From Phycisphaerae bacterium (GTDB taxonomy: Bacteria > Planctomycetota > Phycisphaerae > Tepidisphaerales > Tepidisphaeraceae), in the NCBI GenBank assembly GCA_025924315.1, contig JAICIO010000027.1, positions 1-61,750 on the forward strand: a stretch of DNA of 61,750 bases. Direction: 5' to 3'. This document shows, one piece after another, positions 9,245-61,750 of this stretch (position 1 is its first letter; each line of letters begins with the position of its first letter). The notes below the pieces were generated by a model. That model was not told the DNA's origin. It searched no databases and saw nothing but the letters and a program-made list of their open reading frames with translations. The translations under genes and the position numbers were made by a program.

Positions 9245-9288
9245 ATTGAGTAGGGTGGGCAATGCCAACCGTACGACAGCGTCGGTGG

Positions 9289-9385
9289 GGCAGACATTCT
9301 TGTCTGCCTCGGATCGATGTACTCATCGAGACGAATCGGCCGCCGAATACGGCGTCCGTTGGCAGACAGGAATGTCTGCCCCACC
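9289..9385 (+). promoter_or_regulatory. two hairpins sharing the stem GGCAGACA/TGTCTGCC in the sulfatase leader
   Basis: ggggcagacattcttgtctgcc at 9289-9310 and ggcagacaggaatgtctgcccc at 9362-9383 are near reverse-complements of each other. Located 25-120 nt upstream of the sulfatase start. Confidence 0.4.
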
Positions 9386-9408
9386 GGAAACCAAGGGAAC
9401 TCGGAAAC

Positions 9409-17939: not shown

Positions 17940-19640
<1,701 letters not shown>

Positions 19641-21331: not shown

Positions 21332-22963
21332 ATGGCAGCGAAACAGATGAAGTATGAAACCGACGCTCGCGCGGAAATCGCCGCGGGGTTGTCGCAATTG
21401 GCCCGCGCCGTCAAGGCGACCCTCGGGCCCCGCGGACGCAACGTCGTTCTGCAGAAGTCGTTCGGCTCTCCGCGGATCACCAAGGACGGCGTGACCGTCG
21501 CGAAGGAGATCGAACTCCCGCAGCCGTTCGAGAACATGGGCGCCAAGCTCGTGCAGACCGTTGCCAGCAAGACGGGCGACGTCGCCGGCGATGGCACGAC
21601 CACCGCGACCGTGCTCGCCGAGGCCATCTTCAAAGAAGGCCTTAAGTACGTGACCAGCGGCGGCGCGAATCCCGTGCAGATTCAACGCGGGATCCTGAAG
21701 GCATCCGAAGTCGCGTCCGAAGCGATCACCGCCATCAGCAAGAAGGTCAAGGGACGCGAAGATTACAAGCGCGTCGCCACGATCAGCGCCAACGGCGACG
21801 AACATATCGGCGACCTCATGGCCGACGCGATGGAGAAGGTCGGCAAGGAAGGCGTGATCACCGTCGACGAAGGCAAGAGCACCGAATCGGTTCTCGAATA
21901 CACCGAGGGCATGCAGTTCGATAAGGGCTACCTCTCGCCGTACTTCATGACGAACCCGACGACGCTCGATGCGACGCTGGAAGACGCGTACATCCTGCTC
22001 CACGAGAAGAAGATTGCCAACCTGGCCGAGCTGCTTCCGCTGCTGAACAAGATCGTCACCAGCAGCAAGCCCCTGCTGATCATCGCGGAAGACGTCGAAG
22101 CTGAGGCGCTCGCCGCGCTCGTGGTGAACAAGCTTCGTGGCGTTCTCAACATTTGCGCGGTAAAGGCTCCAGGCTTCGGCGATCGCCGCAAGGCGATGAT
22201 GGGCGACCTCGCCGTCGTCACCGGCGGAAAGTTCATCTCCGAGGACATCGGATTGAAACTTGAAAACGTGGAACTTGAAGACCTCGGCACCGCGAGGCGG
22301 ATCGTGGTCGACAAGGACAACACACTGATCGTCGAAGGCGGCGGTTCGAAGAAGGAAATCACCGGCCGTGCCGATCAGATCCGCAAGCAGATCGAAACCA
22401 CGACCTCGGACTACGACAAGGAAAAGCTCCAGGAGCGCCTTGCGAAGCTGACCGGTGGCGTGGCCGTCGTGAAGGCCGGCGCGAACACCGAGACCGAGAT
22501 GAAGGAACGCAAGGACCTCATCGACGACGCGCTGCACGCGGTGAAGGCGTCGGCCGAAGAGGGCATCGTCCCCGGCGGCGGCGTCGCATTCCTCCGCGCG
22601 ATCGAAGCGGTGGAGAACGGCAAGCGTCAGGCGAAGGGCGACGAGAAGATCGGCTTCGACATCGTTGCCGAAGCGCTCCGCAGCCCCGCTCGTCAGATCG
22701 CCGACAACGCCGGTGAAGACGGCGAAGTGATCGTCGCGCAGATCCTCGAAAACAAGAACGCCAGCTACGGCTACAACGCCGCGACCGGCGAATTCGGTGA
22801 CATGTTCAAGATGGGCATCATCGACCCGACCAAGGTGTCGAAGACGGCGTTGCAGAACGCCGCATCGGTCGCGGGCCTCGCGCTCACGACGGATGTGCTG
22901 ATCACCGAGATCAAAGAAAAGAAAGGCGAAGAAGCCGCGGCCGTGAACGGCGCGATTTCGTAA
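21332..22963 (+). CDS. groL: chaperonin GroEL (copy 2, cotranscribed with groES; no GGM tail)
   Basis: [20 protein letters not shown]...[17 protein letters not shown]...[15 protein letters not shown]. Confidence 0.95.
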
Positions 22964-30582: not shown

Positions 30583-30619
30583 GTATCCGCCCAACCACCG
30601 CTATTGTTGTGAGACCTTC

Positions 30620-30693
<74 letters not shown>

Positions 30694-30729
30694 TTTCGTT
30701 TTTGTTTGCCTTATCCTTGCCGCCCGTCC

Positions 30730-46816: not shown

Positions 46817-46877
46817 GCCGCTTGCGGCTTAGCGGGAACGAGAGCAACGTTTTATTTCCCGCTAAGCCGCAAGCGGC
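46817..46877. repeat. unique 21-bp perfect inverted repeat (hairpin) downstream of the oxidoreductase
   Basis: gccgcttgcggcttagcggga-N19-tcccgctaagccgcaagcggc. No flanking U-tract. Confidence 0.6.
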
Positions 46878-46899
46878 TCGAAATGCTACAATCCGGAAT

Positions 46900-47151
46900 A
46901 TGAGTTCGCTCGACTCGCTCGGCTTTCATTCCAGTGTATTCGACCGCCCGGACAACAACCGCACCGAACAGATCGTCCGACTTCGCGTGCTCAATCGCGT
47001 GCTCGAATTCACCGGCCGATCGATCGACGACGTCGTCAACAATCCCATCGTCAAGAACGAAGTCCGTCACTGGTACAAAGTGCACAAATGGGTCCAGCGC
47101 GGCATTGAGATCGGTGATCTCGAGCGGCAGTGGAATTCGGTCTCGCGATGA
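46900..47151 (+). CDS. hypothetical small protein, translationally coupled to nucleoside hydrolase
   Basis: 83 aa. Its stop overlaps the downstream ATG (ATGA at 47148-47151). Confidence 0.35.
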   Translation: MSSLDSLGFHSSVFDRPDNNRTEQIVRLRVLNRVLEFTGRSIDDVVNNPIVKNEVRHWYKVHKWVQRGIEIGDLERQWNSVSR

Positions 47152-48017
47152 CCGATCGCATTCCCATCCTCCTCGACACAGACATCGGCAGCGACATCGA
47201 CGACGCGGTTGCGCTCTCTTACCTGCTGAAGAATCCGCGGTGTGAATTGCTGGGTATTACGACCGTGACGGGTGATGTCGCCAAGCGATGTGCGTGTGCG
47301 GAGGTTGTGTGCCGCGCGGCGAGGCGGGAGGAAGTTCCAATTCATTCCGGTACATCGAAAGTGCTGCTGCATGGTCCAGGCCAGCCGAACGTCCCGCACT
47401 ACGACGCGATCGCGCATCTGCCGCACCAGCGTAACTGGAAGCCGAACACCGCCGTCGATGTTCTTCGGCAGACGATTCGTTCACGCCCGCAAGAAATCAC
47501 GCTGCTGACGATCGCGCCATTCACAAACATCGCGTTGCTCTTCGCGATCGATCTAGAAATCCCGTCGTTACTAAAGGGACTGGTTTCGATGGCGGGGGTT
47601 TACTTTTCACCAGAATCGAAACCCGAATGGAACTGCCGCGTCGATCCCATCGCGACGGCGATGGTGTACGGCGCGAAAGTTCCCAATCACACGAGCTTCG
47701 GCCTCGATGTGACGCTGCAATGCACAATGCCGGCCGACGAAGTGCGAAAGCGTTTCGCGCGCCCGCCGCTCGACGTCGTGCTCATCATGGCGGAGACGTG
47801 GTTCAAAGAGCACGACGTGATCCGCTTCCACGACCCGCTGGCAGCGACGGCGATTTTAGCGCCCGAGGTTTGCGAGTACGAGCGAGGAACGATTCGAATC
47901 GGCTCTGAAGGCGAAAGCGCATTTGTTGCAGATGCAACAGGTCCTCATCGGGTTGCGCGTGCGGTTCAGGTGACGCAGTTCCTCGAGCGGTATTTCAGCG
48001 TGTTCGCGATGGATTAG
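47148..48017 (+). CDS. inosine-uridine preferring nucleoside hydrolase family protein
   Basis: ILLDTDIGSDIDDAVAL aspartate-cluster motif at the N-terminus. Length 290 aa. Confidence 0.8.
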   Translation: MTDRIPILLDTDIGSDIDDAVALSYLLKNPRCELLGITTVTGDVAKRCACAEVVCRAARREEVPIHSGTSKVLLHGPGQPNVPHYDAIAHLPHQRNWKPNTAVDVLRQTIRSRPQEITLLTIAPFTNIALLFAIDLEIPSLLKGLVSMAGVYFSPESKPEWNCRVDPIATAMVYGAKVPNHTSFGLDVTLQCTMPADEVRKRFARPPLDVVLIMAETWFKEHDVIRFHDPLAATAILAPEVCEYERGTIRIGSEGESAFVADATGPHRVARAVQVTQFLERYFSVFAMD

Positions 48018-48133
48018 AAATCCGCCCCATTTCGTCACTTGCTCGTAACTCGCGTTATAGAAAACCTCGCGAAAGATAAAAGACCCGGAATATCCGGTAT
48101 GCAATGATCTCTCCATCTCAAACAGGAGAGATC

Positions 48134-50251
48134 ATGTTTGTCGCGAGCATTTCGGGGATTTCAATTCTGGGGGTCAGTTCGCTGATGGCGTGGGGAATCG
48201 CGCTGGTGGTTCTGCTGGTCGGTTTCAAATTGCTGCTGGCATGTCTTGGCGTGCGCATGATTCCCAACGATCGCGTCGGCATCGTGGAAAAGATCTGGTC
48301 GGGCAAAGGCTCGGTCGGACAAGGGCGGATCATCGCGCTCAGCGGGCAAGCCGGCTTCGAAGCCAGGCTGCTCCGCGGCGGCATGCACTTCTTTAAGTGG
48401 CCGGTGCAGTATCGCGTCCACAAGGTGCCGCTCGTAACCATTCCGCAGGGCAAGATTGGTTACGTCTATGCCCGCGACGGTGAACCGCTGCAGCCGAGCC
48501 AGACGCTCGGCCGCGTGGTGAACTCGGATAACTTCCAGGACGCCGAAGCGTTTCTCGCGCGCAAGGGACAACGCGGTCGCCAGCGCGCGATCCTGCGTGA
48601 AGGCGTCTATGCGATCAACCTCGCGATGTTTTACGTGATCACCGAAGACGCGGTGTTTCACCTGAACACCGGCGGAAAGGCCGAGGTCGAAAGGCTGGTC
48701 TCGTGGCAGCGCGAGCTCAAGGCGCTGGAAGGGTTCAGCCCGGTGGTGATCGGCGAAGAGATGTCGGCAGTCGATCCGTTGAATCCGGACAAGGCGATCG
48801 TGGTGGACTCGATCGGCATCGTGACGGTGCACGACGGCCCGAGTCTTTCGCCGGGCGAAATCATCGCGCCGTCGGTCGGCAATGATCCGAATGAAGATCA
48901 TTACCATAACAACTACCAGGACCCGGACGCGTTCCTCGCGGCGGGTGGTCGGCGTGGTCGGCAATATGTTCCGCTGACGGACGGCACCTATTTCCTCAAC
49001 CGATGGTTTACGACGGTTGAGATCATTCCGAAAACCGTTGTGCCGATCGGCCACGTGGGCGTGGTCGTGAGCTACTACGGCCCGATCGGAAAGGACCTTT
49101 CCGGCGAAGCGTTCCGTCACGGCGAGCGTGTGGCTCGCGGCGAGCGCGGCGTGTGGGAAAAGCCGTTCGGTCCCGGCAAGTATCCGTTCAACACCTACGC
49201 CGGGCAGATGATCATTGTGCCCACGACCAACTTCGTGCTGCACTGGATCACCGGCAAAACGGAATCGCATCGCTATGACGACAATCTCAACTCGATCGAC
49301 CTGGTCACGAAGGATGCGTATGAGCCGATGCTGCCGCTGAGCGTCGTCGTGCACATCGACTACATGAAAGCGCCGTCGGTCATCCAGCGTTTCGGCGATG
49401 TGAAGCGGCTCATCACACAGACGCTCGACCCGATGCTCAGCGCCTACTTCCGTGACGTGGCGCACAAGCGAACGATGCTCGAGTTGCTCCACGAGCGCGA
49501 CCAGATCCAGGTCGAAGCGCGGGGCGAACTGCAACGGCGGTTCATGGATTTCGACATCGAATGCGTCGACGTGCTGATCGGCAAGCCGGACACCGCCGAA
49601 GCCGGCGGCAAGATCGAAACGCTGCTCGAACAGTTGCGTCTGCGTCAGCTCTCGGTCGAACAGGTGCAGACGTACGACCACCAGCGCAAGGCCGCGGATG
49701 AGCTCAAGAAGCTCAACGAAGCCCAGGCGCTGGCGCAGCGTCAGACCGAGCTGACGGGTTCGCAAGTGCAGATTCGCATCGCCGAAAACCAGGGCGACGC
49801 GGACCTCGCCCGAGCCCGCAAGCAGGCCGAGCAAATGATCGTGACCGCCAAGGCCGAGACCGAGCAGAAGATCCTCGCCGGTCGCGGTGACAGCACGAAG
49901 ACGATGCAGGTTGGTCTGTCCGAGGCGGCCGTGCTGATGAAAAAGATCAGCAGCTTCGGCGATCCGCGCCTGTACGCGATGGCGCTCGTGGCCGAACACC
50001 TGTCGCGGAGCGCCCAGCCGCTCGTGCCGGAACGAATGTTCGTCACCGGGGCGAATGGTGATAGCCCGCAAGGCCAGGGTTTGCTCGGTCAGCTGATCAG
50101 CCTGCTGGTCGCGGAGAAGAGCGGCTTCGCTCTTGCCGAATCAAGCGGCAATGGCAACGGCTCTTCCGAGTTGAAAGACTTCGCCGATCGCATGAGCAAG
50201 GAAGCGGTGGCGTCGATGGAAAGCGCTGTGGCCTTGAAGCAGCGCAACTAG
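48134..50251 (+). CDS. flotillin-like SPFH/band-7 protein with long coiled-coil C-terminus
   Basis: N-terminal TM, SPFH core, Ala/Glu/Gln-rich coiled coil. AGGAGAG RBS precedes the ATG at 48134; the alternative ATG at 48104 lies inside a hairpin arm. Confidence 0.7.
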   Translation: MFVASISGISILGVSSLMAWGIALVVLLVGFKLLLACLGVRMIPNDRVGIVEKIWSGKGSVGQGRIIALSGQAGFEARLLRGGMHFFKWPVQYRVHKVPLVTIPQGKIGYVYARDGEPLQPSQTLGRVVNSDNFQDAEAFLARKGQRGRQRAILREGVYAINLAMFYVITEDAVFHLNTGGKAEVERLVSWQRELKALEGFSPVVIGEEMSAVDPLNPDKAIVVDSIGIVTVHDGPSLSPGEIIAPSVGNDPNEDHYHNNYQDPDAFLAAGGRRGRQYVPLTDGTYFLNRWFTTVEIIPKTVVPIGHVGVVVSYYGPIGKDLSGEAFRHGERVARGERGVWEKPFGPGKYPFNTYAGQMIIVPTTNFVLHWITGKTESHRYDDNLNSIDLVTKDAYEPMLPLSVVVHIDYMKAPSVIQRFGDVKRLITQTLDPMLSAYFRDVAHKRTMLELLHERDQIQVEARGELQRRFMDFDIECVDVLIGKPDTAEAGGKIETLLEQLRLRQLSVEQVQTYDHQRKAADELKKLNEAQALAQRQTELTGSQVQIRIAENQGDADLARARKQAEQMIVTAKAETEQKILAGRGDSTKTMQVGLSEAAVLMKKISSFGDPRLYAMALVAEHLSRSAQPLVPERMFVTGANGDSPQGQGLLGQLISLLVAEKSGFALAESSGNGNGSSELKDFADRMSKEAVASMESAVALKQRN

Positions 50252-50369
50252 CCCGTGAGGTTCGTCACGTGGGATGAGGGACGGGGGGGAGTGCTCGCGA
50301 CGGATGGAACTGCTTCGAGCGCTTCCACCCTCATCCCACGGTTGTTTTTGAACGCCGGTCCCAAAAATC

Positions 50370-50436
50370 GCACGGGTTTTCAACCCGTGCTTTCTTTTTG
50401 TGTATGGAGAATGCACGGGTCACAAACCCGTGCTAC
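50370..50436. repeat. inverted pair of GCACGGG...CCCGTGC hairpin units
   Basis: gcacgggttttcaacccgtgc-N22-gcacgggtcacaaacccgtgctac. The second unit shares the extended flank gagaatgcacggg...cccgtgctactt with the copy at 8045-8078. Confidence 0.85.
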
Positions 50437-50453
50437 TTGTTTTTGGGAGGCCA

Positions 50454-52097
50454 ATGGATCCGCTCTACACGTTCACGCTCTCACACGACGGCACGCCGGC
50501 TTCTTACGACGAATCGCTCGCCGTCGCCTGCTTGCAAGGCCTCATCAATCGCGACGCGCCGCGGTTGTATGTGCTGTCCAAGAAGAACGCGCGGCCGCAA
50601 TACTGGCTCGACATTCTCTCGAAGAACAATCGCTGGCTCGCGGGGCGGGAGCTTCACGCGATCGAGGATCTCGATGGATTGATCAAGCTCACCGGCGACA
50701 AGCTGAAAGGCGCGGTCATCTGGGACCCTGAAGTTCCCGCCACCGTGAACGTCGCGACGACGATCGCGGGGATCGAGGACGGCGTTGTGCTCAGTCCCGA
50801 GTTGCACCAATCGTCATCGCTCCCGGTCCTCCACGATCTTCGCGGAAGATCCACCGGATCCGAGACCGGAAGCAAAAAGAACGACGCCTATCGCTGGGCG
50901 ATTCGCGAGTACCTCGACAAGAACCTCTGCTCGTCGAAATTTCTCTGCCTTTATGAAGATTCGTTTACGATGCGCGCCAAGGGCGACATCGGCTACATCC
51001 TCACGCGCGACTGGGCAGTGAAGAATCATTCGTTCGTGTTCGACCTTTCACCATGGCCGGACGAAGCGCCCGCCGATGACCCGGATCAGAAGATCGGCAT
51101 CGATTATGAAACGTACCAGATGATCCTCGACCGCATTGGCAAATCCGCCGGCGGAAAGCACATGACGGAGATGACCGGCTTCTTCGCGTTCACCAAATAT
51201 TCGAGTGAAGGTGGCCGCAAGAGCAAGCATCTCCCGGTGCCGACGGAATGGCAAACGGTGTGGATCATCTCGCCGCACAACACCTATCAGAACACCATCT
51301 CGAGCGATTGTTTCAATCAGTCGCTGCACAGCCAGGCCCCGCGAAAGCCGCTCAAGCAGAAGTTCAACAGACCTCCGCTGCCGAAGCTCGAGAACAAAGC
51401 GTACGTCGCGATTCTCATGGCGGATTACGATTCCGCGACGCCGCTCTACGATTTTCTCCCGTCGCATTGGGACGACGCGCAGCGCGGCACGTCGCCGTTT
51501 ATCTGGGGCATGAATCCGAATCTCATTGACACGTATCCGGACCTCATTGCTTACTTTTACGAGACGGCGACGAGTGCGGATACGTTCGGCTCCGATGCAA
51601 GCTGCGCGGGGTACATGAATCCAAACTCAATCCGCAAAGAATCGCTTCCGCTGTTCACCGCGCACAACAAGAAATACTTTACCGAAGCCGACATGACGAT
51701 CGCGCCGATGGTGCTCGACCAGGATCAGCCCTCGCCCGACGTGAAGGATGCGTTCGCACAATTCGCGCCCCAGGGGATGGCATGCTTCGTCGATGACCAG
51801 CATGGCACAGGCGGAAAATTCCCGCCGCCGCAGGTTTGGAAGGGCATGCCGGTCATCGAATTGATGAACGAGCCGTGCAATTCAAAAAGCCCGGAAGAAC
51901 TCGCGACGGCGTTCGCGCGGCGCATCACGGCATATCGCCCCGGTTCACCGCTCTTCTGCATCTTCCGCTGCGTGTGGGTGAATCCGTCCGCGGTAAAAGG
52001 CGGGCTTGAACTGCTGAAGAAGCAGAACCCAAACCTACCAATCGAGGTGGTCGATCCGCACACGTTCTTGTCGCTGTTCAAAGTGTGGAAGTCGTAG
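50454..52097 (+). CDS. hypothetical protein (possible carbohydrate-active enzyme), function unknown
   Basis: 547 aa with good coding signal. No motif recognized with confidence. Located next to the sulfatase. Confidence 0.45.
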   Translation: MDPLYTFTLSHDGTPASYDESLAVACLQGLINRDAPRLYVLSKKNARPQYWLDILSKNNRWLAGRELHAIEDLDGLIKLTGDKLKGAVIWDPEVPATVNVATTIAGIEDGVVLSPELHQSSSLPVLHDLRGRSTGSETGSKKNDAYRWAIREYLDKNLCSSKFLCLYEDSFTMRAKGDIGYILTRDWAVKNHSFVFDLSPWPDEAPADDPDQKIGIDYETYQMILDRIGKSAGGKHMTEMTGFFAFTKYSSEGGRKSKHLPVPTEWQTVWIISPHNTYQNTISSDCFNQSLHSQAPRKPLKQKFNRPPLPKLENKAYVAILMADYDSATPLYDFLPSHWDDAQRGTSPFIWGMNPNLIDTYPDLIAYFYETATSADTFGSDASCAGYMNPNSIRKESLPLFTAHNKKYFTEADMTIAPMVLDQDQPSPDVKDAFAQFAPQGMACFVDDQHGTGGKFPPPQVWKGMPVIELMNEPCNSKSPEELATAFARRITAYRPGSPLFCIFRCVWVNPSAVKGGLELLKKQNPNLPIEVVDPHTFLSLFKVWKS

Positions 52098-52154
52098 GGT
52101 GTGCTTCAGCACACTATCCTCGCCCACAAAACGGTGTGCTGAAGCACACCCTAC
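52094..52154. repeat. palindromic repeat family, GTGTGC variant
   Basis: gtagggtgtgcttcagcacac-N19-ggtgtgctgaagcacaccctac. Confidence 0.8.
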
Positions 52155-53899
52155 TTGCGTGTGACATACAGGTAATATGCGCCGCAAAGTTCAGCTCCCG
52201 CTGAATCGTAAAACCAAGTTTTTGCGCGTATCGTTCCTGGCTTGAGGTGCATCGTGAACCGCACCGACTTGTCGCTCGACTTCACATCGTTTGTGACTTC
52301 CTGATCCCCAACCACAAGCTTCGCCTTCGCGATCGGCAGCGCTTTCCCGGCGGGGTATTCACCATCAACGAACTTCATCGGCGGAACGCCAGCATCGATC
52401 GCCACATCCGCTTCCCGTGGCCAGCGCCGAAGCTCGAACGTATAATCGCCTTCCGTCGTCACTTCGATCCCCCACGGCGCATTGCGATTCGGCCCCGCCC
52501 GCACTTCCTTCTGCTGATCCATGATCCGGTTCTGCCAATCCGCCACCGAGAGCATCACCGGCTGCGTCGTCTTGCCAATCGGAATCGTGCTCAGCTCATT
52601 GACTCCTGGTTCGATGTCCGCCCACCACGTGTCGTAATGTGCGCGCATCTTCGCGACGATGTCCGGATGATCGGCGGCGATGTTGTGGTCCTGGCTGAGG
52701 TCGGCTTTGATGTCGTAGAGGTCAGTCCCGTTCGTCAGCCGCCAGTTTTTCCAGATCACTGTGCTGTCGTACTTCGCGGGAATCGGCTTATTCATCCTGC
52801 TGAACTGCACGACGAGCATGCGATCAGGCAGATGCGCCTGCTCGCCGCGCAGAAGGGGCGATAAGCTAACACCCGAAAGCTTCGAATCGGTTGGAGATTT
52901 TAACTCGCACCAATCCACGAGCGTCGGAAAAAGATCCTGCACTTCGATCAGTTCCGAAACATCACGCGCATCACCCAGATTTCCCCCGGGCCAGCGCACA
53001 AAACACGGGACGCGATGCCCGCCTTCCCACAGCGTCACCTTTCCGCCTTTCATTCCAGCGTTAAAAGTCTTCACGCCGTACGTTCCGCCGTTGTCGGTGA
53101 GAAAAATCAGGATCGTGTCGTCGCGCAACCCCGCTTCCTGCAGGAGATCTTCCAGCCGCCCCATGTTCTCGTCGATGTTCGCGATCATCGCGTAAAAGCT
53201 CGCGAGGTTGTGATCGAGCTTCCGATACGGCTCGCGATATTTGTCCGGAACAAACAGCGGCGCGTGGGCGGCGTTCAGTGGGAGATAGACTAAGAAGGGT
53301 TGTTTCGCCTCCGCCCGCTCGCGCATCCACTTCATCGCTTCATTGAAATAAATGTCTGTGCAGTAGCCCCCGAACTTCTTTTTCGACCCATTCTCAAGTC
53401 TCAGCGTCGGATTGAAGTAATCGTTGTTCCACTCATCCGGAGCCGAGCTCATATGCGACGATGGAAACCAGATCGCTTTCTCAAACCCACGATCCTGCGG
53501 CCGATACGGCTCGACATCGCCCAGATGCCACTTCCCAAACATCGCCGTGCGATATCCACCGCCGCGAAACACATCCGCCATCGTCGGAATCCCGCGGCGA
53601 AGCATCGAGCGTCCGCTACTGACATTCATCGCCCCGTTGTCCAGCGCATCGCGCCCGCTCATCAGCTGCGAGCGGGTCGGTGTGCACATCGGGCTGACGT
53701 GAAAATCGGTGAAGCGGATCGATTGATCGTGTAATCGATCGCAATTCGGCGTCTTCACGATCGGCGAACCATTGCATGAAAAATCGCCATAGCCGACATC
53801 GTCCACGAGCACGATCAGCACGTTGGGCTTGGTTGAAGCGAATGCGGGAAGGGAAGTGAATGCGCAAATCACGAACAGGAAACGTAAGGTTCGCAACAT
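52151..53899 (-). CDS. formylglycine-dependent sulfatase (arylsulfatase family), secreted
   Basis: Signal peptide. KPNVLIVLVDDVGYGD and CTPTRSQLMSGR (C-x-P-x-R). Confidence 0.85.
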   Translation of the reverse strand: MLRTLRFLFVICAFTSLPAFASTKPNVLIVLVDDVGYGDFSCNGSPIVKTPNCDRLHDQSIRFTDFHVSPMCTPTRSQLMSGRDALDNGAMNVSSGRSMLRRGIPTMADVFRGGGYRTAMFGKWHLGDVEPYRPQDRGFEKAIWFPSSHMSSAPDEWNNDYFNPTLRLENGSKKKFGGYCTDIYFNEAMKWMRERAEAKQPFLVYLPLNAAHAPLFVPDKYREPYRKLDHNLASFYAMIANIDENMGRLEDLLQEAGLRDDTILIFLTDNGGTYGVKTFNAGMKGGKVTLWEGGHRVPCFVRWPGGNLGDARDVSELIEVQDLFPTLVDWCELKSPTDSKLSGVSLSPLLRGEQAHLPDRMLVVQFSRMNKPIPAKYDSTVIWKNWRLTNGTDLYDIKADLSQDHNIAADHPDIVAKMRAHYDTWWADIEPGVNELSTIPIGKTTQPVMLSVADWQNRIMDQQKEVRAGPNRNAPWGIEVTTEGDYTFELRRWPREADVAIDAGVPPMKFVDGEYPAGKALPIAKAKLVVGDQEVTNDVKSSDKSVRFTMHLKPGTIRAKTWFYDSAGAELCGAYYLYVTRK

Positions 53900-54075
53900 G
53901 CGAGCAATCTACCCGAAGATTTGAACGACCGGTTGCAGTCGCGTATGATTTCCCGCCATTGCGGGTGTAACTCAATTGGCAGAAACAGATTTAGCTTGAC
54001 AGCCTTCTGCGGGGACGGTTTTTCGGGGAAATTGCGGGAAAATTAAAGGCGGACGACGCTGAGCTAATCGCGGGA

Positions 54076-54312
54076 TTACTCGGGGTTCTTTTTGCGCTCC
54101 GCGCTTTCAACCAGTAGACTCGCTACAGCCATTCGAAGGAATTCGACGCGCCGATGAACTTCGGGAAGCTGACCAAAGAAGATCGTCTCGTTAAACGGTT
54201 TGTTTTCGCGGTCTTTCCCTAGAACGGTAATGAAGCCAGAATCTGTGTTCGCCATATTTCCAACTACGGGAAACAACGCTGACGCGCGCTTGTAGGCATC
54301 GTCGTAGGTCAT
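54076..54312 (-). CDS. hypothetical protein
   Basis: 78-aa ORF in a lower-GC region. No motifs. Confidence 0.3.
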   Translation of the reverse strand: MTYDDAYKRASALFPVVGNMANTDSGFITVLGKDRENKPFNETIFFGQLPEVHRRVEFLRMAVASLLVESAERKKNPE

Positions 54313-54538
54313 AGCTGGAATTAGACCGCTATGCCGATTCGAACGCCAGAGAAAACATCGAAGCTCGACTATAGCAATCGTCCGAACGTCAGCGCGCGAT
54401 GGTTTCGCATCGCGCGGTGGTGGGGCTGCCGAGTCTATCGAGCGATCTCTTCATTTATGTTCGGCGCATATCCCGGCGAGCAATGATCATCATAGGGGAA
54501 CGCTCCCGTACCAACGACGAGCGCTCCCCTATAACCTC

Positions 54539-55222
54539 CTACTTATCCTCTTTTGTCGTCTTGAATGTGTTCCCCAGGTTCTTCAGAAGCTTGTCCAAAG
54601 CGTCTACGCGATCACTCGCGGTATCGCTGGTTGCTGGTTTAGCGCCGGATGTCGGGGTCGTCTGATTCGTCGTGTTGCCGGTTCCCGGTTTATTGCCTGT
54701 TGACGTTCCATCTTCCTTACCGGTTCCCGGTTTATTGCCTGTTGACGCTCCATCGTCCTTACCACTTCCGCCCGATACGCCCGTTACGGCATCATGAGCT
54801 AATGTACCACTGGTTGCGAATACAGGGTTTTTGAACGTGATCGTGATCGTGTTTCCCCGCGCGTATGTTTTGGAATTGGATGAAGTGTCGGAGATGCTTC
54901 CCTTAACAGGGATGATCGCAGGCGGAGAAATATCTGCCGAGACAGTCAAAGATTTCGAGTCTGTTCTCGATCCCTGCACATTGAAAGTTACCGTTACCTC
55001 GTCCGCATAGAGACCGAAAGACTTGTCAGTGGGTTCGGTTGTAGGATGCGCCGCGTCCTGCGGAGGGTGCGCCGCGTCGTGCATCAAACGTAGACCTGTC
55101 CCGACCTGCTTCAAAGCGTCCTCTAACGTAATCTCGTTAATCTCATCGTGCTTCATGGAATGGCATCCGCCGGAAGCGATGAGAATTGCCAAGACTGGCA
55201 ACAATCCGAATTTGACTGACAT
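54539..55222 (-). CDS. lipoprotein with Gly/Thr/Lys/Pro-rich repeats
   Basis: GGGAGG RBS, lipobox ASGGC. Repeats GTSTGNKPGTGKEDGTSTGNKPGTG. Confidence 0.45.
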   Translation of the reverse strand: MSVKFGLLPVLAILIASGGCHSMKHDEINEITLEDALKQVGTGLRLMHDAAHPPQDAAHPTTEPTDKSFGLYADEVTVTFNVQGSRTDSKSLTVSADISPPAIIPVKGSISDTSSNSKTYARGNTITITFKNPVFATSGTLAHDAVTGVSGGSGKDDGASTGNKPGTGKEDGTSTGNKPGTGNTTNQTTPTSGAKPATSDTASDRVDALDKLLKNLGNTFKTTKEDK

Positions 55223-55406
55223 ACAACCTCCCATTGAGGAATTGAAATGAGCGGACGAATGTTCGTCCGCTAGGCGAAGGGTACTTCGAGCGAACCGCGA
55301 GACACGATAAGTTGCCGATTTAGCGACATACCCAGAACAGGGTAATTGACCCGACGACGGAACAGCCTTCGAGCGTGTCAGCACGCCGACCTGCATGATT
55401 CCACAT

Positions 55407-55579
55407 CACTTTGCCTTACGTGCGGTAACGTATCCAAGAATGACGAGCGCGCCGGAAAGGAAGGTGGTCGCAATCTCCCACTTGCCGCAAATGACCCCAT
55501 AAATGGCGGTCGCAACCACCGCGACGTACGTAATGAGAATGATAAAATCCGTAACGGGCTGTTTGGGATGTTTAGGCAT
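55407..55579 (-). CDS. putative 57-aa two-TM small membrane protein (holin-like size class)
   Basis: MPKHPKQPVTDFIILITYVAVVATAIYGVICGKWEIATTFLSGALVILGYVTARKAK. Below the ORF-track length cutoff; found by manual translation. Confidence 0.25.
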
Positions 55580-56039
55580 CGGTTTCCTCGGCAGACGGAG
55601 AAAGAAATCTCAGTCGCCGAATCAACCAACGCTGAGCGATTAACGGGAAGCGGGCGCTGCGTTAATCAACTTGCGGGAGGAAGATTCAGGCTCAACTTCT
55701 ATCGCGTATCGAATCGAACGTTGATGCCCGCGTTCCGATGCTCTCTGTTTGGTATCCTGCCAGTTTCTCACCAGCGGTTGACGCCAGAGCATCCGCCAAA
55801 ATCATACTCAATACTCTATAACGTATACTCGTCTCGACGACGCCCGAAGGCGACGCCACAGGCACATTATGTGCGTATTCGGGAATTGTCCAGCCGATTT
55901 TTACCCTCGAAAATATCACCGAAAATCCGGCGGGAATTAGCTTGATGATCTCAGCGAACTCGGGCCCAGTGATTCACGTTATCACGACGGTCGTGATAAC
56001 AAGATAATCCAAACAGCCCGAAAGGGCAGGAGCAGTCAG

Positions 56040-56486
56040 ATGGCAACGGAAACCAAAGCGGCGAAGGCAAAGACAGACGCTTTTAAGCGAATCGCAGTCG
56101 GGAAGGTTCAAACGGTTAAGGCGAGCGAGATCGTTCGCCAGAATGCGAACCAGAAGCCCCGGAACGCTTCGGGCGAGAATCCGTACAGGGAGGGAGGATC
56201 ATATCATGCGGTAGTAAGCGGGCTTCGATCGCTGGGGCTTAACCGCCTGCATTCATTCGACGCGATTGTGCCTGCCGTCCGCAAGGCGATGGGCAGCGCG
56301 TACAAAGCGTTCGCCAGGAAGGATGCCCGCAACGATGAGACAGGCAAAGACGCCCGCGAGCGAATCATACAGAACGTTTCGGTGGTCGCTCGAAAGGATT
56401 ACGGCGCTCCGCTCCGCAAGGTCGGTTTTGAGGTTCGCTACGACGGACGCGAGAAACAGGCGGGATTGTTTCGACTGAGTAAGTAA
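56040..56486 (+). CDS. hypothetical protein
   Basis: 148 aa, Lys/Arg-rich. Followed by two tandem terminators. Confidence 0.4.
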   Translation: MATETKAAKAKTDAFKRIAVGKVQTVKASEIVRQNANQKPRNASGENPYREGGSYHAVVSGLRSLGLNRLHSFDAIVPAVRKAMGSAYKAFARKDARNDETGKDARERIIQNVSVVARKDYGAPLRKVGFEVRYDGREKQAGLFRLSK

Positions 56487-56509
56487 CACGGATGAACGCA
56501 CGGAAGCGT

Positions 56510-56540
56510 AGCCCCGGCCCTTGCGGCTGGGGCTTTTTTG
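56510..56540 (+). terminator. intrinsic terminator
   Basis: agccccggcc cttgc ggctggggct followed by TTTTT. Confidence 0.5.
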
Positions 56541-56627
56541 TTTGAAGGAATCCGAGCGCGCGAGAGGAAGTAGATGATGTTCTTTCGTAGAGCCAGCAGC
56601 GTCTGCTGGGATTCCTGAGCGGACTAG

Positions 56628-56658
56628 GCTTGCGTCATGTTCCCTAGTCCGCTTTTTT
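56628..56658 (+). terminator. intrinsic terminator (second, tandem)
   Basis: gcggactagg-N14-cctagtccgc followed by TTTTTT. An A-tract on the other side means it could act bidirectionally. Confidence 0.45.
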
Positions 56659-56665
56659 AATGCGC

Positions 56666-57079
56666 TCATCGCTTGTGAAGATCTCGGAAAACCTTTTCAA
56701 GCTGCTTAATAAATCCATCGCCTCTGCGGCAACGCTCTAGCTCAGCGTTGAAATTCGCAACCGTCCACCATCGGCTGTTCCGCCCGTACTTGGCTTGCCA
56801 GTTCCAGTAAAGGTGATAGACATTCACCGAAGGATTACCACTATCAAGCCACGTAAAGCGCCCGACCTCGCAGAATAACTTTCTTCCATGCGCATTCCGG
56901 CGCTTCGGGCCGGGGTTTTCATTAAAGGCGATTTCGAATTCTTCGGGCAACGTTTGACATCGTTGCATGAGACGCGCGAAAGCGAGCGCTTGATCTGCTG
57001 CTGAGTCCATCCGTTCGATGCGTTCTAGTTCCCCTTTGCGTTCTGAATCCGTGGGTTTGCGGGGTCTTTTTTCTCGCAT
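56666..57079 (-). CDS. hypothetical protein
   Basis: 137 aa, Trp/Arg-rich. No motif. Confidence 0.4.
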   Translation of the reverse strand: MREKRPRKPTDSERKGELERIERMDSAADQALAFARLMQRCQTLPEEFEIAFNENPGPKRRNAHGRKLFCEVGRFTWLDSGNPSVNVYHLYWNWQAKYGRNSRWWTVANFNAELERCRRGDGFIKQLEKVFRDLHKR

Positions 57080-57133
57080 GGCAGAAGTTCGCGCACCACT
57101 AATTTAGCGATTGGCAGCGACCGCGTACACCGG

Positions 57134-57700
57134 TTGTCGCTTTCGGCTACCAGTTCGCCCGATGAGAAGGGCAGACGCTTTCAGTTCTATAGCGATTCGA
57201 TCATTTGGACGCCCGAAGTTCTCGCATTATGGAGCCACGAGCTCGCGTTTCCGCTCGGATCTACTGGCAACCTAACGCTTCGGATGCTCCCGATTGATGA
57301 CAGAGGGCAGCCGGTCGAGATCGATGTGCCGAATACAACTGTCGGTAATGATACTTTCGAGAATGTTCGTAGTCGTCTCGCTCGCGGCATGAGCTTTAGC
57401 GGTCTGATGCTGGTGAAAAGTCTTTCACCTGTACCTGATCAGCCGAATACCTATCGCGTGGGGAAGGGCGGATTCATCGCCAACGAAGTGACCGTAACCG
57501 TCGCGCCATCCATGAAGGAAACCAGCATCGAAGTAGCGCCTGCGACTGCTGAGCAGCAGACCCACAGCGAACCGGCCACCGATTCGTCTCAAAAACAAAA
57601 TTCAGATCAACAGAAGGAACTCAGAAGGCAGCAGCAGAAATTAGATGAGTACAAGCTGATGCTTCTGAGGCCAGGCAAAGTATCTGTGCAAGGGAGCTGA
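57134..57700 (+). CDS. putative phage prohead protease (HK97 / peptidase S78-like) with Gln/Glu-rich C-terminal tail
   Basis: GRRFQFYS (compare RAFRFE), VLALWSHELAFPLG (compare LLWQHD..PIG), SFSGLMLVKSL (compare GLSIGF), FIANEVTVTVAPSMKE (compare EISLVTFPANPEA). The start may be earlier and non-ATG. Confidence 0.4.
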   Translation: MSLSATSSPDEKGRRFQFYSDSIIWTPEVLALWSHELAFPLGSTGNLTLRMLPIDDRGQPVEIDVPNTTVGNDTFENVRSRLARGMSFSGLMLVKSLSPVPDQPNTYRVGKGGFIANEVTVTVAPSMKETSIEVAPATAEQQTHSEPATDSSQKQNSDQQKELRRQQQKLDEYKLMLLRPGKVSVQGS

Positions 57701-57727
57701 GAATTGTGAACAAGGTTTTTCACTCCC

Positions 57728-58927
57728 ATGATCGATATCAATGTAATCCGCGCTCAGTTCGCGGACATTCACGCAGAAGCAGTAAAGTTCGCTGAAGACA
57801 ACAAAGAAAAAGAAGTGCCCGCCGAAGAGCAGGCAAAGCAGGAAGCGCGTTTCTCGCAGATGGACAAGCTCCAGAAGCAGCTAAACGACGCTGAAAAGCT
57901 TCTCGCCTACAAGTTCTCTAAAAACGAAGTCCAAGTTTCCGAAAAGAAGCCTGATCAGATCGCTTTCGAGAAGTCTGAAAACATCGAACCGAAGCAGTTC
58001 GATTTCGACAACGAAGATGATCGGAAATCTTTCGGTAAGGCGCTTGGACGTTGGGCAACTGACGGCGCTATGCCCGCCGAATTCTCGACCCTCACGACCG
58101 CGACGTCTTCGAGCGCATATCTTCCGAAGCAGGTAACCGGCGGCTCGACCATTGTCGCTGGTAACTCCATCCGTGAAGGTATGGCTGCTGTTGGCGCTAC
58201 TCCTGTTTCGCTCGGTAGCACTGCCGATTGGAATGAAATCGTCATCCTTCCTGCTGCTGGTTCTGACCTCACGGAAGGTAACGATAGCGGTGGCGAAAAT
58301 AACAGCGATGGTTCGGCTGCTTTCTCCAAGATCAATCTGAAGTGCTACGGCGAGAAGTCGGGGCAGATTTGGATTTCGAATATGGAATCTCGGGCCGTCA
58401 ACATCAACCTGCTCGATAGAACCGTTCCGGCGCTTCAGGGTGCTAAGGAACTTCGCCTCGAAACCAAAGTTCTGTCGGCAATGGCTGCTGACGGCGGGAT
58501 CACGCGAGTGACTCAAACCACGGGCGACGTATACGCCGACTTGAGCGCGCTCAACAACTCTCTGCCGAAAGCATTCGACCGACAGAAGTTCATCGTTTTG
58601 AACTCTGAGTATTATGCGGATGCTGTCGCATTCCGTGGTGCAGACGGTCACCCTGTTCTGATCACCGATCCTCAGAATCAAACGCTGGTTCGCTTCAATG
58701 GAACGCCGGTCATTAAGACTGACGCTCTAAGCGGCGAAGGGAGCAATAACATCGTTGGACTCTTGATCTCTTGCGTTGGGTTCCGCCTTCGCGATGAAGA
58801 TCCTGTCGAAGTTATTCGTTACCCGAACGATCCAGCTCATACGGGCGACACCGGTTTGGATCTAGTTGCTTACCACTCGCACGGCTACCTGCCGCAGTCG
58901 GTGGCTAAGCTCGAATTCGAATCGTAA
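57728..58927 (+). CDS. phage major capsid protein, HK97-like fold, with N-terminal coiled-coil delta-like domain
   Basis: N-terminal coiled coil of about 100 aa. Core blocks INLKCYGEKSGQIWISNMESRAVNINLLD and ELRLETKVLSAMAADGG match the HK97-family pattern. Strong terminator downstream. Confidence 0.6.
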   Translation: MIDINVIRAQFADIHAEAVKFAEDNKEKEVPAEEQAKQEARFSQMDKLQKQLNDAEKLLAYKFSKNEVQVSEKKPDQIAFEKSENIEPKQFDFDNEDDRKSFGKALGRWATDGAMPAEFSTLTTATSSSAYLPKQVTGGSTIVAGNSIREGMAAVGATPVSLGSTADWNEIVILPAAGSDLTEGNDSGGENNSDGSAAFSKINLKCYGEKSGQIWISNMESRAVNINLLDRTVPALQGAKELRLETKVLSAMAADGGITRVTQTTGDVYADLSALNNSLPKAFDRQKFIVLNSEYYADAVAFRGADGHPVLITDPQNQTLVRFNGTPVIKTDALSGEGSNNIVGLLISCVGFRLRDEDPVEVIRYPNDPAHTGDTGLDLVAYHSHGYLPQSVAKLEFES

Positions 58928-58986: not shown

Positions 58987-59478
58987 ATGAGATGGGAAAA
59001 GACAACACGACCCGCTTCGCTTTTCGCTTGGAAGGATTTCAAGCCGCATGTTCGCGTTGACTCCGACGAAGAGCGAACTCTGGTGGAGAATGTCTACGTT
59101 CCTGCCGCAACTGCACGAGCTGAAGAGCTGCTGCAAATGTCGCTGATGGAGCGGCAGATAACCGCCACGTTCTGGCGAGAAGACCTGATGCATTCGAACT
59201 ATATCTATCACCAGCATCTTTACGTTCGGCTTCCTCGCGGGCCTGTCGTAGATGCTTCAAAGATTGCGAGCGTAGTCGATTCGGAAAATACATCCCTCGA
59301 ACACGAACTGTATCGCGTCGGGAATTCAGACCGAATTCGTTTGATATCGCATACGACGCATTACCCGATCGCAGAATCGCCACGATGTTCCCGGCGAGCA
59401 CTTCATGCAGAACGCCTTCGAAGCGAAAGCAGAAGAGGCAAAGGATGTCATCATTCAACAACTGAAACAGGGAATTGA
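58987..59478 (+). CDS. putative phage head-tail connector (gp6-like); 3-prime end ambiguous
   Basis: ERTLVENVYVPAATARAEELLQMSLMERQITATFWRED resembles gp6-like connectors. From about 59355 another frame reads a plausible helical C-terminus (EHFMQNAFEAKAEEAKDVIIQQLKQGIERELQR) ending 1 nt before the next gene. Confidence 0.35.
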   Translation: MRWEKTTRPASLFAWKDFKPHVRVDSDEERTLVENVYVPAATARAEELLQMSLMERQITATFWREDLMHSNYIYHQHLYVRLPRGPVVDASKIASVVDSENTSLEHELYRVGNSDRIRLISHTTHYPIAESPRCSRRALHAERLRSESRRGKGCHHSTTETGN

Positions 59479-59497
59479 GCGGGAGCTGCAGCGATAA

Positions 59498-59896
59498 ATG
59501 CCAGAGATCGAAGCGATCATCTTTCGTCGCCTCAACAGCAACTCCGAACTTCGTGCGGAAGTGAAGGGAAACATTTTCCCTGAGTACCGCGAAGATCGGA
59601 TACCGGCTCTTTGCATCGACATGACGATTCTGGATTCTGAAGAGGGTTATGAAGGAACCGGACTGGTTCAGTATGAACTAACTATTAGCGTTTTCGCGCA
59701 GGACTACCCGACTGCGGCAGAGATCGGCGGACTTGTTGTCAACGATTTACACCGCGCGAGCTGGGTCGATGGGAGCTACGTCATTGACGGCGCTTACTAC
59801 AAAGACCGCGACGGTGGGGTGAAGCCTGTTGTTAATGCTCGCGACGATGCCGGAGCGATTGATCTTCGTTTCGATGTTGTCGTGAAAATGACTTAG
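59498..59896 (+). CDS. putative phage tail-completion / DUF3168-like protein
   Basis: 132 aa. MPEIEAIIFRRLNSNSELRAEVKGNIFPEY...IPALCIDMT pattern, plus position after the connector. Confidence 0.3.
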   Translation: MPEIEAIIFRRLNSNSELRAEVKGNIFPEYREDRIPALCIDMTILDSEEGYEGTGLVQYELTISVFAQDYPTAAEIGGLVVNDLHRASWVDGSYVIDGAYYKDRDGGVKPVVNARDDAGAIDLRFDVVVKMT

Positions 59897-59909: not shown

Positions 59910-60161
59910 ATGACAGAAGCAATGGGCGGAAAGAATACGAAGATCGGCTTTTCAGACAATGCCGATGGCCCGTTTACATACTTAGCGGAAGCGTTGGATC
60001 TGCCGTTTCCAGAAGCAAAGGGCGATCACTTCGTTGCCACGAATTACGACAGTGGCGATGCAGAAGAAAAAGTAGACACGGGGTTCGTCGATATCTCGGA
60101 CTACAACTTTTCCATCATCTACACGGATGACAAGGCCGGATGGAACTTTCAGCGCCGGTGA
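59910..60161 (+). CDS. hypothetical protein, possibly the N-terminal part of the downstream Cys-rich gene
   Basis: Frame 0. Protein-like to its stop at 60161. Overlaps the frame-1 ORF by 35 nt. Confidence 0.3.
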   Translation: MTEAMGGKNTKIGFSDNADGPFTYLAEALDLPFPEAKGDHFVATNYDSGDAEEKVDTGFVDISDYNFSIIYTDDKAGWNFQRR

Positions 60162-60543
60162 TTGTTGCTGCGATGAAACTCCTACGACACTTCCATGCCA
60201 GGGCTGCGGTCCGGTCACTGTTGACGAGTTCGGACATGAGAACGGATTTCTTTGCACGCAGCCGTGTTGCATTCAAGTAACGTTCGAAGGCTGGACACCT
60301 GTTACTCACGCCTATCTCTGCGGCGATCCCGGAACGCAAGCACCGCAACCCGGCGCAACGATCAACGGCACTTACATACTTCGGCAGTCGCTCGGCTGCG
60401 GATACGCCGGGCGATTCTGCAAAGTCGGTTTGCCGTTTCCCTACCCCGATGGAATGGGCGGTTATCTCTCCGGACTACTCCATGCCCGTTTGGCGATGCG
60501 TGGGAGCTCGTCAGCAATACCGGCAACTGCACCGCGCCTGTAA
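60127..60543 (+). CDS. Cys-rich protein segment (frame 1)
   Basis: GDCCCDETPTTLPCQGCGPV...CTQPCCIQV...CGYAGRFC. Frame 1 is open upstream to 60076. Confidence 0.4.
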   Translation: MTRPDGTFSAGDCCCDETPTTLPCQGCGPVTVDEFGHENGFLCTQPCCIQVTFEGWTPVTHAYLCGDPGTQAPQPGATINGTYILRQSLGCGYAGRFCKVGLPFPYPDGMGGYLSGLLHARLAMRGSSSAIPATAPRL

Positions 60544-61750
60544 CGCTTACCGTTCGTTGTCAGACTTCAAATGACACCGGCAACCCCTGCGATGGTTTTC
60601 ATTGCGGCCCGTGCTGCTGTCGCATTGCTCTTTCTTTTTCTTGGTCTGATCCAGCTTGCACCCCTGTTGTCAATCTTGAGCTCGCGAAAGGATTCAACGG
60701 CGCTTATCCGGAATGCACTTGGAGCAGTAACGGAAATCTAGGCGTTGAAGATTCGATCAACACCGAAGGCGCGCTGTCGTGCGGTACGGAAAACGGTGGG
60801 GAATGGGTTCTAACGATCCATGTTCCCGCAACTGACATTTGCGTTAATCGCTTCGGTGGTCACGGCGGTTTTCTCATTCTGACTTCGCCGAAGTCCGGCC
60901 CTTGCCCGTCAACAGATCCCGCAGACTGGACGATTGAACAAAACGATTGGCTAGACACGCCGACATTTCAGATGTCGTGCGACAACTGCCCGGACTGTTC
61001 CGCTTGTTGCGCGCAATACATCGCTGCCGTCAGTGGAGCTTCTGACAGTTCGCTAAATGCTGCTGGCGTCGAAGTTCAATCCAGCGGATGCAACTGGAGC
61101 TACACCGGCAGCGCATTTCTCGACACGCTCGAATGCGACCCAATCAACAATCAATGGAAGTTCACGCGCTATCGACTACCAGACGAAAAGAAGATCGTTT
61201 TCACCGCTTCGTTCTCCGGCGCTTCATGCCCCGAAGATGCAACGTGGTCAGTTGATACGAACGAAATCGGCGGATCGCCTACGGTCACGATTCTCTGCGC
61301 CGATACGCCTTGCTCGGGCGATTGCTCGTCATGCTGCAATAACCTTTCTGTTGTCGTAGCGAATACAGGAACAGATTCGTGGGGCATTACGGGAACGTAT
61401 GCCTTTACGCGAGACGCGGACGCCTGCACTTACACCGCAACTGGCGGAACGATTACTTGCAATGATGGCGTTGCGAAGCTATCGCTTGTCGGATGCGGAA
61501 CCGGTTGCACCTACAACTTTATTACGCCTTCTGACGGCGGATGCATTCCGCTCGATGCGACTTGGTATTTCAAAGATAAAACGGATACGGGCGGCTGCGG
61601 TGGGTGCGATGATCCAGCGTCCTCTTATACGTTCGATTTCTCCTGTTCGGATTCGCCCGATGATCCTACCTGCGCCCTCTGCTGCGATGTTTACCGATTC
61701 TCGTTAGCCGATCGTGAACTCGATGTTGATTACAAGCGCAACTCCGAACA
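60468..61750 (+). CDS. Cys-rich protein, long ORF without ATG in frame 0, continues past the window end
   Basis: Uninterrupted for more than 427 codons. Recurring CC motifs: CGPCCCRIAL, CDNCPDCSACCAQ, CSGDCSSCCNN, CALCCDV. Many Thr/Gly/Asp residues. Not in the ORF track because it lacks an ATG. Confidence 0.4.

Follow-up and report, generated by a model that had tools for sequence, protein, structure and literature searches.

A truncated tail-tube gene next to a frameshifted cysteine-rich gene, in a decayed prophage of a Tepidisphaeraceae bacterium, as the probable source of two reading-frame switches

Phage tail genes use -1 frameshifting in the G/GT chaperones, and overlapping frames in a tail gene region, as in the lambda G/GT-type arrangement, are also present at the end of contig JAICIO010000027.1 of a Phycisphaerae bacterium (Tepidisphaeraceae; assembly GCA_025924315.1), of which positions 1 to 61,750 are the window analyzed here. 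A sequence-only reading of this window had described positions 59910-61750 as a cysteine-rich gene in a phage-like module, with two compensating frame switches (0 to 1 to 0) due to indels or to deliberate recoding. The locus differs from the lambda system in that another gene and another position are concerned, a slippery heptamer is lacking, the split is not conserved, and the break is located inside a folded repeat module. Three other described systems are also close to it, namely the siphovirus tail-tube proteins, the modular phage tail-fibre or host-recognition proteins built of repeated beta domains, and the defective prophages with deletion-scarred late operons. With the latter it shares a lower-GC (guanine plus cytosine) island beside host genes, the gene order protease, capsid, adaptor, tail completion, and tube, a missing terminase and portal, truncated genes, and frame breaks; it differs from them in that no integrase, attachment (att) site or tRNA gene was seen at the island boundary and in that its right end lies past the contig end. 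A decayed prophage, in which a truncated tube gene abuts a broken cysteine-rich pseudogene, is the likely explanation of both frame switches.

The three frame segments described earlier were retrieved, namely a frame-0 open reading frame (ORF) of 83 amino acids (aa; 59910-60161), a frame-1 ORF of 138 aa (open from 60076, ATG at 60127, stop at 60543), and a long frame-0 stretch. The latter, reported as stop-free from about 60468 to the window edge, is indeed stop-free, in fact from 60240 and thus already well before 60468, and the edge at position 61750 is the end of the NCBI contig. This stretch had been said to lack any ATG, which is incorrect, as it contains a single in-frame ATG at 60972 (MSCDNC). 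The unusual composition that had been noticed in the frame-1 and second frame-0 parts is indeed shared (8.7-9.6% cysteine, both with CC/CxxC clusters; 9.6% in the frame-1 ORF up to the junction), and the 83-aa ORF contains no cysteine at all. Two references were used throughout. The first, P0001 (705 aa, Logan contig L001), was the only relative found when the joined conceptual sequence of the cysteine-rich protein was searched against 5.8 billion proteins. The second, L002, is an intact prophage in a Tepidisphaeraceae metagenome-assembled genome and holds P0005, the only relative of the window capsid. The features of the locus are as follows:

59910..60161, forward strand: putative 3'-truncated tail-tube gene (83-aa ORF), from Smith-Waterman comparison with the 139-aa tube protein of L002 and from synteny.
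60123..60160, forward strand: junction 1, where the tube remnant meets the cysteine-rich gene at its 5' end, placed by the homology limits on both sides.
60127..60471, forward strand: N-terminal domain of the cysteine-rich protein in frame 1, from tblastn to P0001 residues 30-103 and MAFFT alignment with six N-termini.
60463..60479, forward strand: junction 2, from frame 1 to frame 0, a net -1 shift, from the sequence, P0001, and the module hidden Markov model (HMM).
60474..61750, forward strand: remainder of the cysteine-rich gene in frame 0, from P0001 homology and the module HMM.

A single gene accounts for both the frame-1 ORF and the long stretch in frame 0, since P0001 reads through both in one frame. 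Indeed, the frame-1 ORF matches P0001 residues 30-103 (CT.PCCIQ[IV]TF..W...NGTY.L...C.Y), and the frame-0 part matches residues 314-704 with 46% identity (E=6e-122). The frame-1 domain consists of a short leader, CCC, and CCIQVTF...NGTYIL...CGY...FC...PDGMGGYLS, and aligns with the N-termini of all six family members (P0001 and the five described below), with the leader, CC, C[ILV]x[VI]xF, [DN]G[ST]Y.L, and C.Y motifs present. The proposal of a single cysteine-rich protein without a family name was thus borne out for these two segments, as no match was found in Pfam, PHROG or NCBIfam.

The point at which this gene changes frame had been placed correctly. At junction 2, ...PDGMGGYLS in frame 1 gives way to TTPCPFGDAW in frame 0 (DNA TAT CTC TCC GGA CTA CT), the assembled sequence being TATCTCTCCGGACTACT, with a (TC)3 repeat at 60465-60470. 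Removal of one TC or addition of one base restores GGYL(S)RTTPCPFGDAW in a single frame, and P0001, which has its own ATG, spans the same region in one frame (TPDGGGCVSPCPFGSSWELVS). The module HMM (built from 22 copies from family proteins, 113 positions) resumes at position 76 right after the break, which places the break inside a conserved module of about 110 aa. The last 24 codons of the frame-1 ORF, past GGYLS, match nothing, and frame 0 at 60240-60470 is arginine-rich, resembles off-frame sequence, and is without homology. P0001 residues 104-313 have no counterpart in the window, in which the distance from the C.Y motif to the first canonical module is shorter by 100 residues or more than in each of the six homologues. 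Directly ahead of the break, 18 residues of frame 1 (CKVGLPFPYPDGMGGYLS) run collinear with CTAQFRVPVTPDGGGCVS, the part of P0001 that immediately precedes PCPFG (z=2.15, p~0.04); the other two frames gave no significant match to P0001 over the same stretch. This collinearity suggests either an in-frame loss of the missing segment or that the gene never had it, the frame break being a separate small event, and mildly favours such a separate indel over a larger deletion. Junction 2 is most likely a 1-2 nt indel at the (TC)3 repeat, and whether by this indel or by the larger deletion, the cysteine-rich gene is taken to be a frameshifted, contig-truncated pseudogene. NCBI protein records exist for the 83-aa ORF, the capsid, and the gp17-like protein, and none was found for either cysteine-rich frame, which is consistent with annotators calling a pseudogene. 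Exact protein look-ups gave no other contig carrying the 83-aa or the 138-aa ORF, and scans of genome, viral, and metagenome contig collections gave no related locus.

The first segment had been assigned to the same cysteine-rich protein, which was not confirmed. The 83-aa ORF appears to be a tail-tube gene lacking its 3' half and unrelated to the cysteine-rich family, given its alignment to the N-terminal half of a tube protein, its identical syntenic position, and its lack of cysteine. Residues 1-75 align end to end, with one gap, with residues 1-74 of the 139-aa tube protein of L002 (Smith-Waterman score 67, z 8.2-8.6; none of 2000 shuffles reached this score), and no other L002 protein gave a z above 3 against this ORF. 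The L002 tube gene, which carries a weak PF16461 (Phage_TTP_12) match, directly follows the gp17-like gene, and the 83-aa ORF is likewise placed immediately after the gp17-like gene of the window. Compared with siphovirus tail-tube proteins of this kind, the ORF holds only about 54% of the protein and has no Pfam match of its own. Indeed, the alignment ends at residue 74-75 of 139 and the ORF stops 8 codons further, short of a full domain of about 130-140 aa. Tube homology is secure only to about 60122, and the last 8-12 codons or so read through into foreign sequence. The similarity required full Smith-Waterman comparison with shuffles, as BLASTP of the ORF against the L002 tube protein gave no alignment; no Pfam or PHROG family was found for the ORF, and no tube family even at E<=10.

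As the 83-aa ORF matches the N-terminal half of a tube protein and not the cysteine-rich protein, the switch from frame 0 to frame 1 is a gene boundary or a deletion scar between two unrelated genes instead of an intragenic shift. Tube homology is over by about 60122-60134, the homology to the N-terminus of the cysteine-rich family starts at the CC(C) motif at about 60160, and the ATG at 60127 falls within this junction 1. In L002, about 4.8 kb separates the matching tube position from the last tail gene, comprising the tube 3' half, the genes for proteins of 71 and 47 aa, Tail_T, the tape measure protein (TMP), and the genes for proteins of 299 and 198 aa; measured against such a layout, junction 1 lacks these 4.8 kb or so. 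The two shifts are therefore not compensating changes within one gene, as had been proposed, and the later return to frame 0 is a coincidence, because the 83-aa ORF belongs to an unrelated gene. A prfB-like +1 frameshift is not indicated either, as the first two segments come from different families (tube versus cysteine-rich). The context is CGC CGG TGA T, in which, judged by inspection, CGG is unable to re-pair in the +1 frame, and the downstream RNA folds no better than shuffled sequence (z=+1.02).

Junction 2 is not a programmed shift, as neither an in-frame heptamer nor a stable downstream structure was found and the homologues are unsplit. The sole X_XXY_YYZ heptamer in 60050-60560 is TTTCCCT at 60436, which is in the wrong phase and precedes conserved residues of frame 1, so that the slippery heptamers to be expected of deliberate recoding are absent in frame. 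Pseudoknot-free folding of the 89 nt at 60472-60560 gave -22.6 kcal/mol versus a shuffle mean of -27.1 kcal/mol (z=+1.46). The split arrangement occurs in none of the six homologues, P0001 and P0006-P0010 all being single uninterrupted proteins; an uninterrupted frame, as one would look for in related phages, is hence found in six of six for the cysteine-rich part, the first segment being a separate tube gene. Transcriptional slippage was rejected, as 60463-60479 contains no homopolymer of more than 2 nt (the closest one is a CCCC at 60444), and phase variation was rejected, as the (TC)3 repeat is too short.

The surroundings of the locus show the same decay. At about 54 kb, the GC content changes from about 0.60 to a lower value of about 0.53, which marks the boundary of an island of about 54-61.75 kb. 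This island is a decayed prophage, and its late genes upstream of the tube remnant are the following:

57134..57700, forward strand: 5'-truncated prohead protease (Peptidase_S78; PF04586 E=1.8e-13, profile positions 51-160 of 165).
57728..58927, forward strand: HK97-type major capsid protein, apparently intact, 399 aa (weak PF05065 and phrog_10 matches).
58987..59478, forward strand: head-tail adaptor remnant, matching residues 22-138 of the 199-aa protein of L002 and then out of frame.
59498..59896, forward strand: tail-completion (gp17-like) gene, full length, 132 aa (PF11367 E=0.015, below the Pfam cut-off, and L002 position).

In L002, the genes occur in the order TerS, HNH, TerL, portal, S78 protease, capsid, 88 aa, 207 aa, adaptor (199 aa), HCP, 145 aa, and gp17-like, followed by tube (139 aa, PF16461), 71 aa, 47 aa, Tail_T, TMP, 299 aa, 198 aa, and 512 aa. 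The window protease lacks its first 30-36 residues or so, has a TTG start, and finds its match in the L002 protease at residues 37-197 (z=24); no portal or terminase was found upstream of it. An opposite-strand 137-aa ORF abuts it in the place of the portal (56666-57700 region), and the same arrangement occurs in a second, independent NCBI assembly, GCA_025937145.1 (L007). The capsid is 40% identical to P0005 over 99% of its length. The adaptor remnant resembles its L002 counterpart by Smith-Waterman comparison (z=10) and tblastn (8e-6). In the adaptor region (58987-59497), another frame ends with ...AKAEEAKDVIIQQLKQGIERELQR and a stop exactly at the ATG of the next gene, and this tail weakly resembles the C-terminus of the 145-aa protein of L002 (z=2.8). 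The adaptor region looks like a further deletion scar, which would have removed head-closure genes. The gp17-like gene matches the 133-aa PF11367 gene of L002 in position and size, and the pairwise similarity of the two proteins is not significant (z=0.5). Nothing in the window corresponds to the HCP and 145-aa genes of L002, to the 3' half of its tube gene, or to its tail chaperone, tape measure, 299-aa, and 198-aa genes. Of the set that makes up an intact HK97-type prophage (terminase, portal, full protease, head closure, tube, chaperones, and tape measure), all members are absent or truncated here.

Concerning the ends of the island, no integrase was recognized among the few island ORFs scanned, without a systematic search of the island, no att site was seen at its boundary, and no tRNA gene was found near it, the only tRNA gene of the window being located at 30619-30694. 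In a 285-aa ORF on the reverse strand of the island (54539-55396), a hydrophobic stretch, LLPVLAILIASGGC, lies some 65 residues in from the N-terminus, and the C-terminal part contains a tandem repeat rich in threonine, glycine, and lysine, GKDDGASTGNKPGTGKEDGTSTGNKPGTG, with a self-match at an offset of 42 nt at 54675-54763. Elsewhere in the window, the host genes are long and intact; two full-length GroEL paralogues (17973-19640 and 21332-22963) lie 1.7 kb apart, and two sulfatase genes are present (9262-11256 and 52151-53899), a gene content that recalls genomes of the Planctomycetota kind.

The cysteine-rich protein belongs to a small family. A HMMER search of 1.84 billion representatives with a profile of the window sequence and P0001 retrieved only five further relatives, P0006-P0010, of 340-641 aa. 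The family proteins contain 7-9% cysteine. Their module is conserved at the columns C1, C2, C-x-W, C, W, C-P, and W, and Cx2-4Cx2-3Cx2CC clusters are found where one module joins the next. The window contains the tail of a first module (HMM positions 76-112) at 60474-60584, followed by three complete modules of about 110-130 aa at 60612-61013, 61005-61331, and 61332-61679 (domain scores 91, 97, and 67 bits); the canonical pattern CC...C.W...C...W...CP...W...C is found in these three full modules and the partial one. A fifth module (CCDVYRFSLADRELD...) starts at 61680, beyond the point where all six homologues end, and is cut by the contig end, which implies that the window version is longer than any relative, with its true end beyond the contig. 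A single module, modelled with AlphaFold2 from a 19-module alignment, consists of eight beta strands (mean predicted local distance difference test, pLDDT, 85.8; predicted template modelling score 0.79). No convincing fold relative of this module was found, the best Foldseek match against viral structures (BFVD) having an E of 0.17, and no similarity to known tail-fibre or receptor-binding folds was obtained. The AlphaFold2 model of the whole protein reached a pLDDT of 65, and its PDB matches were meaningless. Nothing relevant on cysteine-rich fibres of planctomycete phages was found in the literature.

The genomic position of the relatives points to the end of the late operon. In L004, the family gene follows genes for proteins of about 814, 292, and 183 aa and is the second-last gene before a strand switch; in L001, it follows the same run (713, 296, and 196 aa) and closes the same-strand run, the contig ending right after it; in L005 and L006, no other gene separates it from the strand switch, and RecT and helix-turn-helix genes are nearby. 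This position corresponds to that of the last tail gene of L002 (512 aa). The preceding genes span 925-4559 in L001 and 1721-5949 in L004, and their L002 counterparts by size code for proteins of 751, 299, and 198 aa. The likeness among L001, L004, and L002 is one of size and order only, as no significant pairwise homology was found between the flanking genes of L001 and those of L004, or between either set and the tail genes of L002, and no Pfam or PHROG family was found for the flanking genes of L001, L004, and L005. A structural product, as had been supposed, is supported by this position at the end of phage late-gene operons. A secreted product, also suggested, is not, as the N-termini of the homologues show, by eye, no hydrophobic signal-like stretch. 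The intact protein may be a virion tail-tip or host-recognition protein, with beta modules stabilized by disulfides or bound metal. As in modular tail-fibre proteins composed of repeated beta domains, the gene is found at the end of the late operon, the number of all-beta modules of about 110 aa is variable, and conservation is confined to the N-terminal domain, with fast divergence beyond it; unlike in those proteins, the cysteine content is unusually high (7-9%) and CxxCxxCxxCC-like clusters occur at the module joints, the role itself being a predicted one. Tentatively, and with somewhat more doubt than confidence, the family may be considered an undescribed one of phage tail-end (host-recognition) proteins, apparently of Planctomycetota-like hosts, with a conserved N-terminal anchor, a variable number of eight-stranded beta modules of a fold without known relative, and cysteine clusters that bind metal or form disulfide knots.

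Taken as a whole, the last 7.7 kb or so of the contig would be a decaying siphovirus-type prophage in a host of about 60% GC, probably a planctomycete-like bacterium. A deletion would have taken the tube 3' half and the genes normally following it, which would have brought the tube remnant next to the last late gene, at its 5' end, this gene coding for a large cysteine-rich modular protein. The latter gene would have been broken once, at 60463-60479, by a non-programmed event, for which a small indel is likelier than the end of a deletion of about 630 nt. Several points weigh against this explanation. The 1.28-kb frame-0 part is still stop-free, so that any inactivation must be recent. Neither reads nor a second copy of the exact locus were found for 60463-60479, and L007 ends at 57712, before the cysteine-rich locus. 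In addition, the tube homology depends on one pairwise alignment, undetected by BLASTP and Pfam/PHROG, and the genes flanking the family members in L001, L004, and L005 are without recognizable families, so that gene order is what carries the tail-tip role.

Among the alternatives, an out-of-frame end of an internal deletion of about 630 nt at junction 2, with loss of the remaining N-terminal domain and of two-thirds of the first module, would account for the lack of P0001 residues 104-313 and for the at least 100 additional residues of the six homologues, and would agree with the other deletion scars of the island; the 18 residues that remain collinear with P0001 just upstream of PCPFG speak against it, and this deletion is considered unlikely. 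A sequencing or assembly indel at junction 2, the true gene being an intact ORF from the ATG at 60127, is likewise unlikely. In its favour, the contig looks metagenome-assembled and ends inside a repetitive cysteine-rich gene, the 1.28 kb past the break show neither a stop nor another defect compared with P0001, and a dinucleotide repeat is present at the break. However, L007 matches 46857-57712 (10.8 kb) at 99.9% with 0 gaps, and this gap-free agreement of two assemblies indicates that assembly indels are uncommon here. Furthermore, host ORFs up to 2.7 kb are unbroken, the break lacks a homopolymer, and the neighbouring phage genes are truncated or missing, which is beyond a single-base error. 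This low indel error and the concentration of the damage in phage genes favour a real mutation at junction 2, which it presumably is.

Three independent functional genes, coding for the 83-aa protein, the 138-aa cysteine-rich protein, and a large cysteine-rich protein with a non-ATG start in frame 0, could be imagined from the TTG and GTG codons in frame 0 at 60252-60267 and from the NCBI annotation of the 83-aa ORF as a protein. This is very improbable, as the frame-0 sequence in which these codons lie is of the arginine-rich, off-frame-like kind without homology, the frame-0 homology begins in the middle of a domain (module position 76), the 24 codons of the frame-1 ORF past GGYLS match nothing, and P0001 unites both cysteine-rich parts in one chain. 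Programmed recoding, with shifts of +1 near 60150 and of -1 near 60470 yielding a fusion of tube and cysteine-rich proteins, is the most improbable case, with hardly any credence left. The frames do overlap at both places, and the G/GT chaperones offer a phage precedent for the -1 shift. However, besides the lack of an in-frame slippery heptamer and of a stabilizing RNA structure, and the single-frame state of the six homologues, segment 1 is a truncated gene of another family, and frameshifting genes of the G/GT type sit between tube and tape measure, precisely the stretch that is missing here.

The decayed prophage with its abutting tube remnant and broken cysteine-rich gene hence shows the pattern that prophage decay yields, and 59910-61750 is best annotated as a truncated tube gene followed by a pseudogene that is frameshifted and cut by the contig end. 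There is nothing novel in the frame break itself, and the rare, unannotated family of cysteine-rich modules is the only mildly novel element. This family is a candidate for a new type of host-recognition module in poorly known phages and, as such, of modest value.

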